64,000 bases of DNA from Patellaria atrata CBS 101060 (taxonomy: Eukaryota): assembly GCA_010093705.1 (NCBI GenBank), contig MU006093.1, positions 827,301 through 891,300 on the forward strand, given 5' to 3'. The notes beneath the pieces were generated by a model that made no database searches, was not told the DNA's origin, and saw only the letters and a program-made list of their open reading frames with translations. Positions 9,664 through 40,425 of the stretch are shown in pieces; the stretch's first letter is position 1; each line of letters opens with the position of its first letter. A program made the position numbers and the translations under genes.

Positions 9664-10720
9664 ATGGTCTTCTTCAAGCTGTTAGCATCTGTCTCACTCT
9701 CCTGCCTCTTCCATGTAGCAAAAGCTCAGGGTGGACTTGTCCTCGACCTCAACTTCCCAGACCCTGCCATCATTCAAGTGAATAATCGATGGTACGCATT
9801 CGCAACGACCAATGGACAGGCAAACGTACAAATAGCGTCCTCCGATGACTTCAGCACATGGAGTCTTCATGAAGGCCAAGATGCTCTTCCGGACTTACCG
9901 TCGTGGGTGAACGCTGGTGGTGCAAACGTATGGGCACCAGACGTCATTCAAAACGTACGTTTGACAACCCCTATTCCCCACAGCAGACCATCACATCAGT
10001 AAGTTAAACAACATAGCAATACGCTAACCCCGCACCCAGGACGCCGGCGAATTCGTCCTTTACTTCTCTGCCACCGAAACGTCGTCGGACCACCACTGCA
10101 TTGGTACGGCGATCTCCTCCTCCGTGACTGGTCCTTACGTCCCTGCCTCTTCCGCCTTCGCCTGCCACCGCGAGGAAGGCGGCTCTATCGACGCCGCGGG
10201 CTTCCGCGACCCTGCGTCGGGCAACACCTACGTCGTCTACAAAGTGGACGGTAATTCAATCGGGAACGGCGGCCTCTGCAACAACGACGTCCCGCCCATC
10301 GTGCCGACACCTATCATGATGCAGCGGGTAGAAGCAGACGGCGTGAGCAAGATCGGTGACGCATTCCAGATCCTGGACAGAGACGAGCGGGATGGGCCGC
10401 TGGTCGAGGCGCCGAGTCTCGGCAGGATCGGCGGGAGGTACGTGCTGTTTTTCAGCAGCAGCTGTTACAGTTCGACGCTTTATGATGTCTCATATGCCAT
10501 CGCGGACGCGGTCGAAGGCCCGTACACCAAGTATGGACCGCTGTATGTGACGGGGGATCTGGGGATGACGGCTCCGGGTGGGGCAGATATTGCTGCGGAT
10601 GAGACCAGCTTCGTGTGGCATAGCAATAGAAACGGGGCGGACATTGGAGGTGGAAGGGCTATGAGGGCCGCCAAGGTCAGTTTGAGCGGGAACGTCATCA
10701 AGGCCGTACCTGTGAATTAA
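9664..10720 (+). CDS. Secreted glycoside hydrolase family 43 (arabinanase/xylosidase-like)
   Basis: Signal peptide MVFFKLLASVSLSCLFHVAKA; motifs NFPDP, WAPDV, SIDA, LVEAP; intron 9955-10039. Confidence 0.88.
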
Positions 10721-23109: not shown

Positions 23110-24711
23110 CAACTAAGAATCCACTTGGGGGGTTTTCATGAGTGGTTCGCGAGATGCCGTAAGCCAGCGAAAAAAAGGTCGCTGCACGGGCCGCGAGCCG
23201 GGTGAGCTTGACCGAGACAAAAATAAACCGCCCCCCCTAGTCCCCCGTCTCCCCGAAAACCCCCTAACCCTTTCAGCCCTACAGCATAACCGGCTACCTA
23301 ACCTTAGTGAGTAGTGGACCCCCCTAGGGACCGGATGGCGTCTCAGCGACCAATCGTCACCGCTTCTACGCTTGTTCCGTGGAGTCACTCTCACATGGAT
23401 GTCACGCACCGTCTTTTCCTCAAGGAGTCTAAACGGGAATCCGCTCTGTAAATTCGACCCTCATTCGGACACCAGAGGCTGTGCGTCACGAAAGGGTCTG
23501 TGCGGATTTAGTAACTGGGTGATTATGGCGACCTGTAACTTTCATGACCGACTTGTGACGAAAGAGACCTGGGGAGAGCTGGTGAAGCTTTAGGTTCCCG
23601 CAAGTCAATTCGTTGAAACCTGCGGTACATGGCGGAGGGGCTCTGTTCGATGATGAGTGGCGAGTGGGGTTAGCTGTTTGATACTTTTGTATCAATTGAC
23701 GGCCCCTCAAAGCTGGTTGGTCGAATATTTTGATTAATTTCTGTTTTTGCGTGGATACTTTTATTCGAAAATCTCTCGATCCTGTGACTGTTTCTTGGGG
23801 TCAGGATAATAGACTATTGGAGTAGTATTAGGAACGTTTATGGCGTTACTAATGACGCACACAACAACACCAAGGGCAGATGCTTGAGGCTGAGTGCAGG
23901 TAACTAGTCCGATTGGCAATATTTTAGCAGCAAATTATTTCTTTCTACTGTATTCGATGACTTTGAGAGAAAAGACTGCTAAAAGACTACTAAATCTACG
24001 CTTACCTATCACATCCACGCCTTTTCGTCAAAACGCTCTACACACCGCACTTGGCAGGAATCTTTGCCGGAGTCCCCGACCATACACCGTCTATCATTAA
24101 TTAACGGCTTAGTACACATTCACGACATTCTGAAGACTTTCAAGGGACAGTACGAGCTTCTGATCTTCGGTTTTCGCTAATCGCGCATTAATCGCATCTC
24201 TGACTCGTAGTAGGATTATTGGTATCACCCACAATTCACAAAGAAAGATATGTTTTCCGGCAAGGATCGAAAAACCACACCACCGTCGTGACATTCACTC
24301 TCAGCGCACAAGTACAGGCTTAGGCGATGTGACTGATCACATTCGGAGAATTTCCGAGCACATGCTACGCCATGTTATACCACGTTGCACCAAAGGAATG
24401 ATTCATCTGGAGTGTAATATTCTGGAAAGGGGTCCCCACGAGCCTCATCAGCGACCCTGCATCGCCCGTACAAAAGACAATGCGCTGCAATTGTGCTGCA
24501 GCACATCCATGGAGAGACTAAATTGCCGATGCATGACTTTGTCATACTCGCTGAGAGAGTTCAATAGCACCCTTCGTACCTGCATTTGAGCGCCCTTTCA
24601 CAACGTCCTACCGGTTCGTCCCGCATCCGACGGATCATAGTGCAACCAAAGTAGGCACCGAGCATCCTTACCGATGACACATAGTCGGAAATTTTTGCTG
24701 CGCAGCGAAGC
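23110..24711 (+). ncRNA. TER: Candidate telomerase RNA (ends approximate)
   Basis: Template CCCTAACCCT 23262-23271; adjacent helix 23125-23137/23255-23267; many helices with plus-strand G-U pairs; three-way junction 24444-24557 with a short P6.1-like hairpin; Sm-type site AAATTTTTG 24689-24697; no credible ORF. Pseudoknot not unambiguously assigned. Confidence 0.65.
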
Positions 24712-24896
24712 GTAATACTACTTTGAGATGTGAGCCGGAATTATGATTCACGAGTCGAAAGGAGCTTGACCGGAACATGCGAAATCATACGATTACAAGC
24801 TGCTTCATTCTATCAGGGCTGTTCAGCAAGAGGAGTGAACTGGCATTGAAGAGGTCTGTTCAGTAGTTGAAAACCCCACGGTCGATTCTCTGCTCA

Positions 24897-26125
24897 TCAG
24901 CCTGCTGTGTGAGCGATGTAGTACTGTGAATTGTCAATTTGATGTCGAAAATGCCTAACGAACACAAGAAAGAATACCGTAAGCACAGAAGAATCTTCTT
25001 CCTCTTCTTCGCTTTGCAAATAGACATACAACACGATAGCATGCTTGTCACATACGCCTATCCATCGTCAGTCATTTTGATCGGAAAACATTTCGTTTGT
25101 CTTTATTCACAAGCAATCACACGCCCACTAAGCTTCCCTATGGACAAAACCTTTGACAGGTCTTTCCCATCTATTCTCACGGAAGCCCACCCCTCGAGAC
25201 TCTTACCGTCGGCAGACCCCTTTTGCTTCATGATGGTGCTTGGATGGTTAGCGATGCCTTCTTCTCCCCCTTCTACCTGAGTAGGATCTAGTTCAGGATT
25301 AGAAAGTTCGGTCCAAAGGCAAGAAATATTCTGAGGATCCGTAACAACACTTAGTCGAAGACATCCATGCATGTTAGCCTCGAAATTGATGATCGGCCTG
25401 TTCTGACGACCACTACGAGAAACAGTATCCCGTATGGCTATCTGAGTGAATTGGTCTGAAATGCTCTTCAGGGCCTTCAAGTTGGGTAGTTGGATGTGTA
25501 CATCAGGATCTGGACATCGAGGCTCATGGATATTTGCTACTGTCTCCGGGCTTAATACTCGGATTGGGATCTGCTGGTTGATCTCATGAGTTCGATCTGT
25601 ATTGCCGGTGGTTTGAAGGTCAACGGTTTGACCATCGCCATCGAACTGGTCATTGAATGAGCTGCCAAATGTACCGGAAGAACCGCTGAGCGATGTTATC
25701 TTCAAACATAAAATCGGCTGGTTGCCAACTTTGGTAAGACGAAGTTCAGCAGCTACGGCATTCAGGGCGGATTTGAGCGCAGCTGTAAGTTGTCCAATTG
25801 GGATTTCAAGATTGATAACGTTGTCAGCTTGTGATACGATGGTGTACTGGTCAAACACGGTGTTCTAGCACCTCTTTAGTTTTATTTCCTGATAACAGTC
25901 ACTCTAGACGTACGATGCTAAGCACACTGAATACTTATCAGTTGATAGAACTATAACCAAGAGAGAAGTCACTCACGCCCAAACCTGCGAGCCTTGCTCG
26001 GGTATGATGGTGAATCTGATATCATCTAAGCTCAATCTGACCCAACATATGCTCCCTATGGAAGTAAGTGCAGACACCAGCTTGTAGAAAGTATTGATAT
26101 TCTGGACATCTGCCTTAAAGCGCAT
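24897..26125 (-). CDS. HUS1: 9-1-1 checkpoint clamp subunit Hus1
   Basis: MRFKADVQNINTFYKLVSAL...RFTIIPEQGSQVWA-VLSI-NTVFDQYTIVSQADNVINLEIP...EPRCPDPDVHIQLP...ANMHGCLRL...HAIVLYVYL...SSVLT-YYI. Five exons including a 13-nt micro-exon. Confidence 0.9.
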
Positions 26126-26141
26126 GATGGTTGAATAGGGT

Positions 26142-26161
26142 ACGCGTTGCTAAAGACGCGT
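26142..26161. promoter_or_regulatory. Two MCB (ACGCGT) boxes upstream of HUS1
   Basis: ACGCGT at 26142-26147 and 26156-26161, 17-36 nt upstream of the HUS1 ATG. Confidence 0.55.
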
Positions 26162-26595
26162 AGAGCTTTCTTCGGTAGTTGACGAATCAGTAGCGATGAG
26201 TGCACGGTCTCTATGAGAGGTAATTATCACCTCAGTGACCTCACAAGCTCAGCTAGCTTTTGACCTGCCTTTTTGTTCGTAAGGAGGGGCATCGATTCAC
26301 GGACACAGCCAGTTTTTCGCTGCATCACGGTTCAAATTAATGAAGCCTCTCGGTTGCTAAGCATCGTCCAGTCGGCCCTCGATGCTTCGCAAGCTTTGCT
26401 TGATTGAGCCTGGATAGGATAAGCTTGTATGCATCATGATCGACCCGAGGCAGCACCCAGCTTGGATCGTCCTTCATATGAGACTTTTAGATGGTGTTTC
26501 TATCTTCTCACTTAAATGGCTTTCCCTCCTCGTAGGTGGTATTTCTTCGATTCCGTGTTTGCTACTCCACTACTGTATATTTAAACCTTTTCAGT

Positions 26596-28367
26596 ATGGC
26601 TCAGAAGGTCCATCCCTTGATTATAGCAATTCTTGTCTCTATATTTGAAGCGTGCATTCTTATTTATCTCTACAAATACCTAGGTCGCAATGACATATCG
26701 TTTACATATGCTTTTCTCTTTTCTTGTGCTGTCAATCTTGCCTTATGGATTGTCTACATTACCCAGATCTACCCAAACTTTATCAGTCCGTTACGCCATC
26801 TACCTAGTCCTTCCGTAAGTCTCCAAAACCCATAGACTGGAATATGAATTGATAGAGGAAGGGAGCTTGGCCGTTCCTAGGCCACATGTACGTTGCTTTT
26901 TCGAACCCTCCAGGACAGAACCTCCAGGAATTCGCTGCAAATATTCCTAACAATGGGATCATTTATTTCCAAGGGCTTTTCAAGGGTGACAGAATCCTAT
27001 TAACAGATTCAAGAGCTCTTGCAGATGTACTGGTGCATAATGCTTATGATTTCGAAAAACCGAACAAAGCTCGCGTCTTTTTACGGCGTATCTTAGGCGA
27101 TGGATTGATCCTCGTAGAAGGAGATCTTCACCGATTCAACAGAAAACATCTTATGCCAGCTTTCAGTTTTCGCCATATTAAGGAACTCTATCCCATCTTT
27201 TGGAAGAAGTCGATCGAACTGACCCAGGCCGTAGAAGGGGAAATCAGGCACAAACGTGCGACTGAAAACAAGGAGAAATTTACAGATGATACCGACGTCG
27301 AACTTAAGGAGTGGGCGAGCAAAGTTACATTTGATATAATAGGTGATGCGGCTCTTGGGCGCGACTTCAACACCCTCTGGAGTCCAGATGATCCGTTGAC
27401 CAGTATTTATCACGAAGTTACTAGACCAGACTTAGGGAAAAACATACATTTCTTGCTTAATCTTCTTGGGCCACAAAAGCTGGTGTCTTTACTACCAATC
27501 AAGGAGGAGCTCCTTCTGAGAAAGAATAGTAAAGCATTAAGAGAACATTGCCGTGAGTTACTGCGGGAAAAGAAAGAGCGTATGAAATTGGAAAGCTCGG
27601 AGCATGTCGATATTCTTTCTATCCTGATCAGGAGCAATGACTTCGCTGACGATATGCTCATTGATCAACTCCTTACGTTCCTCGCGGCAGGGTTAGTGCA
27701 ACTCACTTGATATCGAAAAGACTCCTTACTGACCAAATACAGACACGAGACTACCGCAGCAGCATTCACCTGGGCCGTCTATCTCCTTTCCATCCACCCA
27801 TTCATCCAAACCAAGCTCCGCGAAGAACTCTTCGCCAACATGCCCGAACCCTACTTCCAAACCAACCCCTCCAACCCTCAAAGCCTCTTCGCCCTTCTCG
27901 ACTCCCTCCCCTACCTCAACGCCATCTGCTCCGAATCCCTCCGCCTCTACCCCACCGTCCCCATCACCCTCCGCGATGCCGTCCGCCCCACCAAGATCCT
28001 GGACCAGCACATCCCCGCCGGCACCCAGGTGGTCGTCTCGCCGTGGGCCATAAACCGCAACCCGCACCTCTGGGGCCCGCGCGCGACCGAGTTCGTCCCC
28101 GAGCGCTGGATCGACGGCAGCGGCCAGGCGAACAACACCGGCGGCGCGACGAGCAATTATAGCAATTTGACGTTCTTGCATGGGTCGAGGAGCTGCATTG
28201 GGCAGGGGTTTGCGAGGGCGGAGTTGAGGGCGCTAGTGGCGGCGTGGGTGGGAAGGTTTGAGATGCGGATGGCGGATCCGACGGAGACGGTGGTACCGAG
28301 TGGGGTTATTACGATTAAGCCGAGAGATGGGCTAAGGTTGAGGTTGAGGCCTGTGGTGAGGAGTTGA
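26596..28367 (+). CDS. Cytochrome P450 monooxygenase
   Basis: N-terminal TM anchor, SPLRHLP, I-helix FLAAG|HETT across intron 27692-27741, ESLR (ExxR), PERW, heme motif FLHGSRSCIG. First intron from 26815 to ~26861. Confidence 0.93.
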
Positions 28368-28966
28368 GGGAGTTGGGTCTGTATGGTTGATCTGCTTGAG
28401 GATACTGTAGAGTGCTTAGTCATAGGGTTATGATATCATGAGAGAAGTTCCTCTGTGATATATCCAGCCGTAGATATATAAGTTTGCGGTTCATTAATAA
28501 AGATCAGAGGAGAAATTTGCATTAGCAGTCATCAAAAATCTCCTCATTTCAATATAGCTTCAAACAGACCACACGACAAATAAACCAACCAAAAGAAACA
28601 TCCCAAGTCCCACAACTCCTCCTTCCCCCCCATCCACCCAGTCTACGACAAACCACGTGCCTCTACGGGAGCCGGTAACCCAACGCGGTCGCACCCGCTC
28701 CCTCGTTCCCCTAGCAACCGCGTACAACCACCCACTTGATTGGCCAGTTCCAACCTCACGATTCAGCAGACGTTCGACGAAAAATTAAAATTTCCTAGTC
28801 GGGTATAGTCGGCGGGCGGATTTCTATCGCGATATATGAGGGATGTCTGATTGATATCTGGGGATAATGCACCATACTAAGGAAGCAGTGGGGATGTAAT
28901 ATTATTTTACTGTTTATATTGTTAGACGGATCTGAGTGTGTGAGAGGGGTTTGGGTGAATTGGAAT

Positions 28967-36230: not shown

Positions 36231-38707
36231 ACTCTTCCTTTTCGCTAACTCTTAACTATGCTGATAAGTGTGATTGTTTTAAGTTCTATTCGCGGCGAAG
36301 AAGCTGTCGAAAACTCCTAGAGAGAGATTACAACGACGTCAGATAGCTAGGACAAGCTGAACTACAAGCCTTCGAGGATAGTTGGGTCAAACTTCGAGGC
36401 GAGGAAGTACAGAGGATGATTATTAGGGATAAGCGAGTATTTCAGGTCGTAAGAATATTAAGGTGAAGGATTCAGAGACTTGCGTACTTCGTTGGGTACG
36501 AGGCTGTGGGGAATGCCTTACGACGAGTCGCAGCACGTTCAGATAACCCCAAGGTATAAGTAAAACGGGCGTCGCTATGTACGATGTGGGATCAAACGGA
36601 GAGTACAAGAAGAAGGGAATTCGCGCGATTATGAGTACATGTACAAGGCGATGATAAGTACAAGAAGAAGGGTCAAAGGGGCCAAATTGGTTAACAAGTT
36701 TGCGTTGGTTGAGAGTGAGAGTTGGGATCAAAGTCTCCCTCTCCTGAGTGCTGAAGTTCGTACAGGTACAGCCGTTGGCCTGTCGCGTGCCCTAGTGCTA
36801 AACGTGCCCAATTGCCATTTCGGAAAGCGGCCTCGGTTGTCAAACTGTGATCCTTCAAGACTTTTCAACCCACTCAGCCTTCCCCAGAATAATCCCCGCT
36901 TAACCCTAACAGGAGAATCTCACCCGTCAAACTCAATATCTGACACAAACCCTTTCTGACTTTAAAAAGTTCCCTATACTTACCCCTCCACGGCCTCCAT
37001 AAAGTAGTCAGACATTGCGGTCCATGCCGCTCCCTTAAACTGGCTCTTTTCCAATCATTCCTTCGCTTAAGGACGACAAGCTTTAAGTTGACCGCTTATT
37101 ACCATAGCCTCGAGTTAAGCTCTCTTTGAAACAGTGCTTATCAGATTTCGATAGGGAGAACGCCAGGGACAGATGAATCTAAACCAGGCTGAATGCTCCT
37201 CACAGGGGAAATACGACATCTTTTAAACACAGTGAGGGAGGTTACGCATACTGTTTACGTATGTCGACAAGAAATCCAGCCATAGGATGCGTCGACGACA
37301 AATTCAAAGTCACTTTCGGCTAGAAGGAGTACGTATGAACGCAAGAGAGACAGATCCTCTCGATGTCATGGAGAGATAATGGGAATGAGCATCTGGGTCG
37401 TCAAAAATAAAAGTAAAATCATGTCCCACCTTCTGTAATGCATGGTCTACGTCAAAGACATGTGTACGTATGCAAAGTCGTAACATTGCCGTTCCTATAC
37501 GTTGTAGGTGAAGGATGGGAAGTCTTCGTACGAGCCAGTCACTGTACAGAAAACCATAATGTTAGATTCTCGGGGGGACAAATTCTGATGCTTGCTCCGT
37601 ATACTGACGTGCAATGGTATTGACAAAGCGCGGCTCCTGTACGGATTGTACGGTATGTGATATGAATGCAATAAAGCAAAATATCTTTACATAAAACGCC
37701 TTGAGAAGCTCACTCTGACTAGGTAGAGCATGGAGAGCGTACAGCTCCTGCACAACGAAGCTTTGCGTTCACATGTTGATAGAAGATGGTCATCCCTTAG
37801 CATCTTTGACTGGGAAAGGGAAATGAAGCCCATTTGGACAATCTCCTCCTATGGATAGTTTGATATAGCATATGCCCACGACTTGCCATTCGATGGACGA
37901 GCATACGTATAGTATATTGGAATAACGTTTCCCGTAAAGTAAATCAAACGCGATGGGTCCTTGGTAGGAACAAAAGTGCGAAAGATTGGTGCCCTAGACT
38001 ACTCAACTCCTCGAACGAACTTCTCGTATCAATTGGATCCTCCTCTCATGGAGCCTGAACTTCTGAGGTATTGGATACTTGTTTTATAGCCATGGTCTGT
38101 TGTCGACTTTGGTTCCTTACATTGTCTAAATGACGTACTACTGCAGATCTAGAGCTTGAGAGAGGGCTAAACCACCCCTCCGTGCCCTGCTACCCCTCTA
38201 TCAAAAGAAATAGAAATCTGGGGAGCTCATGGTGGGTGTTGGTACCTTACAGTATAGAATGCAGCCCCATTACAGGCACACAGGATTGATATTGGAGCCA
38301 ATAAGATCTAATTGTAGTTCGAGGAAGACGAACTTACAGAGGGATACAGTAACACGCATTTGTAACAACAACGTGTGCTGTTGTCCTCCAAAGGACTGAC
38401 CTCTTTTAGGTCCCTCTGGCCCCTTCATGATGATCTAGTGCGGGGGAATGATGTTGGCTTCACCAACAGCCACGCCGCCTCAGAAAATTGCGTGATTGCT
38501 GGAGTAAAAACACAAGGAGCTTGAGAAAAGCCTGCGAAATTTTCTTAAAGAAAGCGATACCCTTTCTTCTCTTACTTGTAGTTTCTAGCTTACCTTATTG
38601 ACCCACCTTGAAGGAATTGAAATAAGCAACGACTTGCTAGGTAGTTCATCACTCATTCTCCCCAGAAAACATACCAAAAGAGTTGTTATATCGTCCCAGG
38701 TCCCATC

Positions 38708-40425
<1,718 letters not shown>

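Follow-up and report, generated by a model that had tools for sequence, protein, structure and literature searches.

Does the intergenic DNA next to HUS1 in the fungus Patellaria atrata CBS 101060 harbor a telomerase RNA (TER) gene? Telomerase RNAs evolve fast and are unannotated in most fungal genomes. The stretch analyzed here is 64,000 nt long (assembly GCA_010093705.1, contig MU006093.1, positions 827,301 to 891,300) and is called the window, with coordinates counted from its first nucleotide. An initial annotation had placed a candidate plus-strand telomerase RNA gene in an interval of the window that is free of open reading frames (ORFs). The present analysis supports this placement by a long helix adjacent to the template and by three elements of Aspergillus TERs, namely a hairpin followed by UUGAYGG, the CS3 block and the P6.1 hairpin. 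Each of the three has its sole window match in this interval. These TER-like elements of sequence and structure are rare, and they lie on the plus strand in the order expected of a TER. Judged from the sequence, the region 23,0xx-24,71x on the plus strand is probably the P. atrata telomerase RNA gene, with a candidate RNA of about 1.6-1.7 kb that would be a Pol II-type non-coding transcript.

The putative template, 5'-CCCUAACCCU-3', is situated at 23262-23271 on the plus strand and represents 1.67 repeats complementary to TTAGGG. The letters were verified, and the template-like CCCTAACCCT of the initial annotation was found exactly there. The 10-mer is not significant alone, as the window contains three telomere-like 10-mers (23262, 36901 and 54386) against about 0.7 expected per window by our own arithmetic. 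Any such 10-mer taken at random is a priori unlikely to be the TER template; at 0.7 per window, a genome would contain some hundreds of these sites. The template is accompanied by a helix in which the 5' arm UUGGGGGGUUUUC (23125-23137, plus strand) pairs with the 3' arm GAAAACCCCCUAA (23255-23267). It was proposed earlier as a template-boundary helix, and it pairs as proposed, with 13 bp composed of 12 Watson-Crick pairs and one G-U pair. Pezizomycotina TERs have a stable helix adjacent to the template, and the one observed here ends at 23267. The longest contiguous helix ending at each position was scanned on both strands, allowing at most one G-U pair and a span of at most 250 nt. Helices of at least 13 bp ended at just 5 of the 127,480 window positions, while helices of at least 8 bp ended at 1.9% of them. 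The chance of a helix of at least 13 bp at the template is about 5 x 10^-4, allowing +/-6 nt. The other two telomere-like 10-mers (36901 and 54386) have an adjacent helix of at most 7 bp. Inside the boundary helix, a hairpin arm composed of GGUUCGCG and CGCGAGCC with an inner stem was found at 23144-23199 on the plus strand, which alone is at chance level for its length.

The other elements were compared with the ClustalX alignment of 10 Aspergillus-group TERs in Fig S1 of Kuprys 2013 (PMC3603654), and the statements about Aspergillus refer to the cited sections of that paper. The most conserved block of this alignment contains UUGCAAU-GUAG-AUUGCAA followed by ...UUGAUGGGCGCC, i.e. UUGAUGG. 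Its counterpart in the candidate is the hairpin UUGAUAC-UUUU-GUAUCAA followed by UUGACGG (UUGACGGCCCC) at 23678-23702 on the plus strand. Both hairpins have a 7-bp stem which starts with UUG and ends with CAA, and a 4-nt loop. Compared with Aspergillus, both bases are exchanged in three of the stem pairs, and pairing is retained (C-G to A-U, A-U to U-A and U-A to C-G). A descriptor of this block (TTTG, 7-bp stem with 4-nt loop, TTGAYGG within 8 nt) matched the window solely at 23678-23702, and no match was observed in 300 block-shuffled windows. The hairpin is surrounded by the helix GAGGGGC (23635-41)/GCCCCUC (23702-08), which spans 23635-23708 on the plus strand, was read from the sequence and has its arms paired in the minimum free energy (MFE) fold.

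The conserved hairpin starts 66 nt upstream of a match to CS3. In Aspergillus, CS3 consists of YTTTT, 3-4 variable positions, GATGYT, one variable position and TTTGTYCG, and the hairpin loop that holds it has GAAGCG/CGCUUC as closing stem (PMC3603654 Fig S1). A relaxed pattern (YTTTT-N2-6-GATGYT-N0-1-TTTGTYCG, in which no more than 2 of the 19 fixed positions may be substituted) found its sole window match at 23744 on the plus strand, TTTTTGCGTGGATACTTTTATTCG, with the block covering 23744-23767. Shuffled windows gave 7 matches in 150, distributed in 6 windows, which corresponds to about 0.05 per 128 kb searched. The chance of a match on the plus strand in the 1.6 kb downstream of the template is about 6 x 10^-4, and was taken as about 10^-3 when the features were weighed together. 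By this relaxed consensus, CS3 of the candidate is situated in a hairpin loop with a 7-bp closing stem, as in Aspergillus. The putative pseudoknot hairpin occupies 23721-23768 on the plus strand, with the stem UCGAAUA (23721-27)/UAUUCGA (23762-68) and a loop containing U5 (23744-48), GGAU (23753-56) and CUUUU. The 13-mer ATTTCTGTTTTTG at 23737-23749, which includes the U5 of CS3, recurs 1257 nt upstream at 22480-22492 without the remaining CS3 pattern. Further downstream, a purine/A-rich tract composed of UGAGAGAAAAGAC, UGC and UAAAAGAC (23964-23987, plus strand) was likened by eye to the Aspergillus CS4 GGAGAGGAAACAAAAAC and is a candidate for the 3' strand of pseudoknot stem 2.

The third element is a P6.1-like hairpin, AAGU-ACAG-GCUU (AAGUACAGGCUU), at 24310-24321 on the plus strand, with a 4-bp stem and a 4-nt loop, which forms in the MFE fold. 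In the Aspergillus alignment this hairpin occurs as AAGC-UUAG-GCUU, as AAGC-UCAG-GCUU, in A. niger and A. kawachii as AAGU-UUAG-GCUU and in A. terreus as AAGC-CCAG-GCUU (PMC3603654 Fig S1). The candidate hairpin fits the consensus AAGY-NNAG-GCUU at 10 of 10 fixed positions. This consensus has a single match in the window, at 24310 on the plus strand, against 0.30 expected, and one or more matches turned up in 25 of 100 shuffles. Within the approximately 900 nt where P6.1 is expected, the chance of a match is about 2 x 10^-3. The hairpin lies downstream of the pseudoknot blocks and upstream of the U-tract, as expected for P6.1.

The candidate resembles the TERs of Aspergillus and Penicillium in its putative CCCUAA-containing template, a yeast-like helix directly 5' of it, the hairpin with UUGAYGG, CS3 (U5...GGAU...CUUU...UCG) in a loop and a purine/A-rich CS4-like tract. 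P6.1 of the type AAGY-NNAG-GCUU, a terminal stem-loop with a U-tract and the order of the elements are also shared. The size of the candidate is near the 1584 nt of the A. nidulans TER (PMC3603654). In contrast, the AUAAGU 5' splice site and the GCUAACU branch site are missing, and neither the GUC after P6.1 nor the compact P5/P6 context is conserved. The boundary helix of Aspergillus is of the yeast type, has about 8 bp and mostly lies 2 nt from the template (PMC3603654), whereas that of the candidate is longer (13 bp) and extends 6 nt into the template. The remaining invariant Aspergillus blocks, compared by eye, were unrecognizable in the candidate. TERs have been published for 73 Pezizomycotina species including Neurospora crassa (Qi et al. 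2012, PMC3592445). Compared by their description in the cited sections of that paper, the N. crassa and other Pezizomycotina TERs share with the candidate a two-domain layout, consisting of a template-pseudoknot core with a boundary element next to the template and of a CR4/5-like P5/P6/P6.1 domain, both putative in the candidate, as well as long variable arms and a TTAGGG-type template. The N. crassa template, UAACCCUAA, is offset from that of the candidate, and the TER of the Dothideomycete M. graminicola is longer, with 2425 nt (PMC3592445). TER1 of Schizosaccharomyces pombe has a boundary helix partly overlapping the template (PMC4993307, in the part cited), the overlap being larger in the candidate (6 nt). 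Both also have an AU-rich site of the Sm type close to the 3' end (PMC3603654, in the part cited). S. pombe TER1 differs in its heterogeneous repeats and in a GU 5' splice site overlapping the Sm site, while the candidate possesses no convincing splice site.

The wider folding of the region was also analyzed. The initial annotation had listed seven helices; all seven were found at their places, while most of them are at chance level. On the plus strand of 23110-24711, 31 helix ends of at least 8 bp were observed against 30.4 expected from the window-wide rates, and 11 of at least 9 bp against 8.6. Helix ends of 8-9 bp thus match the background rate, and the majority of the listed stems are nothing unusual. 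Helix ends of at least 12 bp were 3 against 0.2 expected. The exceptional helices of the interval are two, the 13-bp boundary helix and the 12-bp helix 24060-24071/24256-24267, in which AUCUUUGCCGGA and UCCGGCAAGGAU close an arm at 24060-24267 on the plus strand. The MFE was compared with that of dinucleotide shuffles, and the resulting z-scores were -1.82 on the plus strand and +0.42 on the minus strand for 23110-23300, -2.18 and -1.38 for 23625-24045, and -2.22 and -1.35 for 24436-24570. These three core segments surpass their shuffles more on the plus strand than on the minus strand. Between them, 23290-23630 and 24040-24440 do not exceed shuffles in stability (z = +1.15 and +0.84). Predicted folding cores with non-folding segments between them fit a TER with conserved cores and variable arms, with a modest effect. 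The initial annotation had also described a three-way junction at the 3' end. It folds at 24440-24562 on the plus strand (MFE -38.9 kcal/mol, z = -2.22), with the closing helix UCAGCGA/UCGCUGA, a long arm UGCAUCG/CGAUGCA and the small hairpin AUGAC-UUU-GUCAU. It carries no P6.1 signature and does not resemble the Aspergillus three-way junction in sequence. The P6.1-like hairpin is located about 120 nt upstream of it, and either of the two may be the working CR4/5.

The best surviving rival of the telomerase RNA reading is chance. The locus could be intergenic DNA or an unrelated non-coding transcript in which an inverted repeat and a handful of short motifs happen to accompany a 10-mer resembling the telomere repeat, and this is unlikely. 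It draws on the three telomere-like 10-mers of the window, the background rate of 8-9-bp stems and the partly post hoc descriptors. The failure of the strict CS3 pattern, the missing canonical 3'-end cassette, the lack of an Rfam match and the lack of conservation in related loci also favor it. However, it needs four independent rare events on one strand and in TER order: a helix of at least 13 bp (5/127,480), CS3 (7/150 shuffles), hairpin with tail (0/300) and P6.1 (0.30 per window). Because these four rare, independent and ordered features on one strand far outweigh the low prior of the 10-mer, the telomerase RNA gene is considered probable. This degree of confidence remains even when the post hoc choices and the lack of the 3'-end cassette are heavily penalized.

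The observations which weigh against a telomerase RNA gene concern the template, the pseudoknot, the P6.1 region, the 3' end and the lack of homologs. In the MFE fold, 6 of the 10 template bases (C62-A67) are paired in the boundary helix, and in this model the helix would have to melt in part before the template became free. The initial annotation had already cautioned that helix and template overlap, and the overlap of 6 nt bears this out. The A4/U4 part of the helix fixes its register, therefore the lower six pairs must open if copying is to reach C62. The fungal boundary element is a stable helix directly upstream of the template, and it overlaps the template in fission yeast (PMC4993307, in the part cited). 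If the helix ending at 23267 is respected, CCCUUUCAGCCCU (23268-80) with its repeated ends could serve as an alternative template specifying a non-canonical 9-nt repeat. This is unlikely. TTAGG-type terminal repeats are described for the Dothideomycete P. nodorum (PMC8146201, in the part cited). The telomere repeat of such a template would be of the AGGGCTGAA type.

For the pseudoknot, the hairpin descriptor and the gap range of the CS3 pattern were chosen after the candidate had been seen, by which the rarity of the hairpin is overstated, and the strict, unrelaxed Aspergillus CS3 pattern has no match in the window. Candidates for pseudoknot stem 2 compete with each other, namely GCGUGGAU/AUCCACGC (23749-56/24013-20), CUUUUA/UAAAAG (23758-63/23980-85) and the hairpin UUUUAGCAG/CUGCUAAAA (23922-30/23976-84). 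Duplex searches for stem 2 and for a core-enclosing helix gave results no better than shuffles. The caution expressed earlier that the pseudoknot is not assignable thus holds for stem 2, as the pairings are mutually exclusive and none beats shuffles. The P6.1-like hairpin is positioned at the tip of a long stem in the MFE fold, without a clear three-way junction, and the GUC which is invariant after P6.1 in Aspergillus is absent from the candidate. The best window match to the 21-nt Aspergillus block of junction and P6.1 with flanks has 6 edits and is no better than shuffles; among 200 shuffles the best match had 6 edits in 132, 5 in 46, 4 in 3 and 7 in 19. A 16-nt Aspergillus junction motif, searched with at most 3 mismatches, matched the window solely at 9721 and 48316, outside the candidate.

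The 3' end of the candidate looks unusual. The Aspergillus TER 3' end contains a U-tract, AUAAGU and GCUAACU (PMC3603654). The A of the AU-type 5' splice site is needed for cleavage (Kannan et al. 2015, PMC4299874), and all known filamentous-fungal telomerase RNAs are said to use spliceosomal cleavage (PMC4993307), in the sections cited. In the candidate, the putative Sm-type site noticed by the initial annotation, AAUUUUUG, was located at 24690-24697, preceded by a 5-bp hairpin at 24671-24688 (CCGAU...GUCGG). This terminal hairpin with the Sm-like tract AAAUUUUUG (24671-24697, plus strand) is the probable mature 3'-end region and is similar to the stem-loop and U-tract of Aspergillus TERs. 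The candidate tract has a C after the G, against a purine in the AU5-6GR consensus (PMC3603654). The Pezizomycotina 3'-end cassette, i.e. a U-rich Sm-like site with AUAAGU and a branch site, is not complete here despite the hairpin and AAUUUUUG. AUAAGU is absent from the plus strand of 19,508-28,477. In the same range, no A-first or G-first 5' splice site (GUNNGU or AUNNGU) was found by the U-tract with a branch site. The sole 5'-splice-site-like hexamer just past the U-tract is GUAAUA (24712-24717, plus strand), which is weak and speculative and falls outside GUNNGU/AUNNGU. The absence of spliceosomal cleavage signals, together with the partly sequestered template, would suit a TER paralog or decaying copy, with the working gene and a normal AUAAGU cassette elsewhere in the genome. 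This explanation is very unlikely, as TER is single-copy in the fungi described (PMC3603654 and PMC3592445, in the parts cited), the candidate has an intact template, boundary helix, CS3 and P6.1, and self-comparison of the window showed no repeat or transposon signature around the locus.

Homology searches gave no support to a telomerase RNA gene. The initial annotation had suggested a covariance-model search, and this found no telomerase RNA family. None of the Rfam 15 telomerase families reached the gathering threshold over the window, and none matched 21500-26500 or 23000-24950 at E <=10; which fungal TER models Rfam 15 contains was not checked. For comparison with related loci, HUS1 relatives were collected from metagenome contigs, where 171 of 266 pattern matches were confirmed and 80 loci were kept. 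Linkage of an MnmE gene to HUS1 was seen in 14 loci out of the 80, ten of them arranged as in the window with 3.4-9.0 kb between the genes. These ten distant relatives with the HUS1...MnmE order kept are L001, L022, L024, L035, L037, L038, L040, L041, L060 and L063. Their HUS1-MnmE intervals differ completely and include lineage-specific ORFs of 398 and 710 aa, and the long ORFs of these intervals gave no match to the window. On the equivalent strand of the 10 intervals, no telomere-like 8-mer was found beyond the included HUS1 end. Their nucleotide similarity was confined to the HUS1 end and 20605-20734, with none to the candidate, and no TER ortholog was found among the 80 related HUS1 loci. 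As the intervals of the relatives possess neither a template-like motif nor similarity, the linkage of TER and HUS1 is either lineage-specific or not real. The syntenic null is uninformative because the relatives are distant (HUS1 identity <=56%). A search of the available literature found no paper pairing Patellaria atrata with telomerase RNA, and a search for Dothideomycetes with telomerase RNA found, in the parts of the papers covered, none describing such a gene.

The neighborhood of the candidate was analyzed for coding potential. HUS1 is represented by a 253-aa ORF encoding a Hus1 domain protein at 25103-25864 on the minus strand. The product is 100% identical to the Hus1-like protein of Patellaria atrata CBS 101060, and the next homolog is 56% identical. 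Mapping of the 340-aa protein back onto the window placed the HUS1 coding sequence on the minus strand from 26125 to about 24897. Two short 3' exons of HUS1 lie at 24897-25103 on the minus strand, past the long ORF, which brings the gene end about 200 nt nearer to the candidate. HUS1 and the candidate are convergent, and the HUS1 3' untranslated region (UTR) must therefore approach or overlap the candidate 3' end. Upstream, an MnmE/MSS1-type GTPase gene was found at 18468-20036 on the plus strand, followed by a conserved minus-strand ORF at 20633-21139, for which no longer homologs were found. No ORF of more than 105 aa read from a start codon is present in 21139-24897, and none of more than 98 aa in the candidate interval 23110-24711. 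None of the 8 ORFs tested from the candidate interval had a Pfam match. The ORF-free interval adjoining HUS1, as initially described, is thus borne out. The locus is non-coding on the scale of about 1.5-2.4 kb, and the TER-like elements span about 1.6 kb. Exact 12-mer pairs were observed at 21330-21341/23491-23502 and 21486-21497/23649-23660, with offsets of 2161 and 2163 nt. Two 260-nt stretches at about 2162-nt offset gave a global alignment z of 3.4 against shuffles and a blastn E of 2.6-7. The support for an internal duplication at this offset was too weak to use, with blastn E of 2.6-7, and the 12-mers may be an old local duplication or a G-rich chance similarity.

Tbf1-type sites are telomere-repeat-like promoter elements, and that CCCTAACCCT is such a site of a neighboring gene and not a template is the least likely of the explanations, since promoter motifs do occur (the related HUS1 loci L009, L011 and L077 carry the 12-nt AACCCTAACCCT about 90 nt from a gene start) whereas the nearest gene starts lie more than 2 kb from the candidate site, the 3' end of HUS1 faces it, the minus-strand ORF ends at 21139, and such a site would account neither for the boundary helix nor for the matches to CS3 and P6.1.

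Other telomere-like sites were observed in the window and in the related loci. In L009 the 12-nt AACCCTAACCCT lies on the minus strand at 17896-17907, at a distance of 6.8 kb downstream from HUS1, where the neighboring ORFs are separated by about 0.6 kb, and the same is seen in L011 and L077. So short a gap rules out a TER at these sites, which look like promoter telomere-boxes. A second ORF-poor stretch of the window (36400-38700, about 2.3 kb) carries TAACCCTAAC at 36901-36910 on the plus strand, upstream of a gene starting at 38709, whose product looks like an O-acetylhomoserine sulfhydrylase. This site was rejected as TER, as its adjacent helix has at most 7 bp and it showed no CS3, hairpin or P6.1 match and no Rfam telomerase match; it may be a telomere-repeat-like promoter element. 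The 10-mer at 54386 was rejected as TER template, since it lies inside a 253-aa ORF. A telomere-like 8-mer with a C-run is present at 22228-22245 (minus strand, UUAACCCUACCCCCCC), in the same ORF-free interval as the candidate and on the opposite strand. A sub-threshold Rfam match to a CRISPR direct repeat at 38581-38623 on the minus strand (30.2 bits against a gathering cutoff of 37) is certainly due to chance in a fungal genome.

A possible mode of action of the candidate telomerase RNA can be drawn by analogy with the characterized Pezizomycotina TERs, and on the same analogy we infer its transcription, TERT binding, the telomere repeat of the species, the pseudoknot pairing and the 3'-end pathway. 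TERT would copy the template CCCUAACCCU (23262-23271) and add TTAGGG repeats. The helix 23125-37/23255-67 directly 5' of the template would halt reverse transcription at the boundary. The CS3 hairpin (23721-68) and the A-rich tract at about 23964-87 may form the pseudoknot which positions the template. The P6.1-like hairpin (24310-21) would be part of a CR4/5-type domain, bound by TERT and activating the enzyme. Sm or Lsm proteins would attach to the terminal hairpin with its U-tract (24671-97), and this element would set the 3' end.

A more specific scenario can be proposed tentatively, and as a whole it is rather doubtful. The P. atrata lineage appears isolated, because its next-best HUS1 homolog is merely 56% identical. 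The candidate might be the working TER of this isolated Dothideomycete lineage, in which AU-intron spliceosomal cleavage has been abandoned and the 3' end is set by the hairpin and the Sm-like U-tract converging on the HUS1 3' UTR. The 13-bp helix, locking 6 of the 10 template bases, would then be partly opened in each repeat cycle. If this is true, a template-locking boundary helix could be a built-in brake or regulator of template use.

The candidate TER gene is of an ordinary type, already published for 73 Pezizomycotina. If confirmed, it would be noteworthy for its lack of an AU-type cleavage site and for its template-covering helix. Each TER from a deep, isolated lineage sharpens the view of the truly essential parts, and the candidate keeps the template-adjacent helix, CS3 and P6.1 across the Eurotiomycete-Dothideomycete divide. 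Its confirmation would show that the catalytic core varies less than the 3'-end pathway, and it would provide a natural case of a boundary helix overlapping its template.

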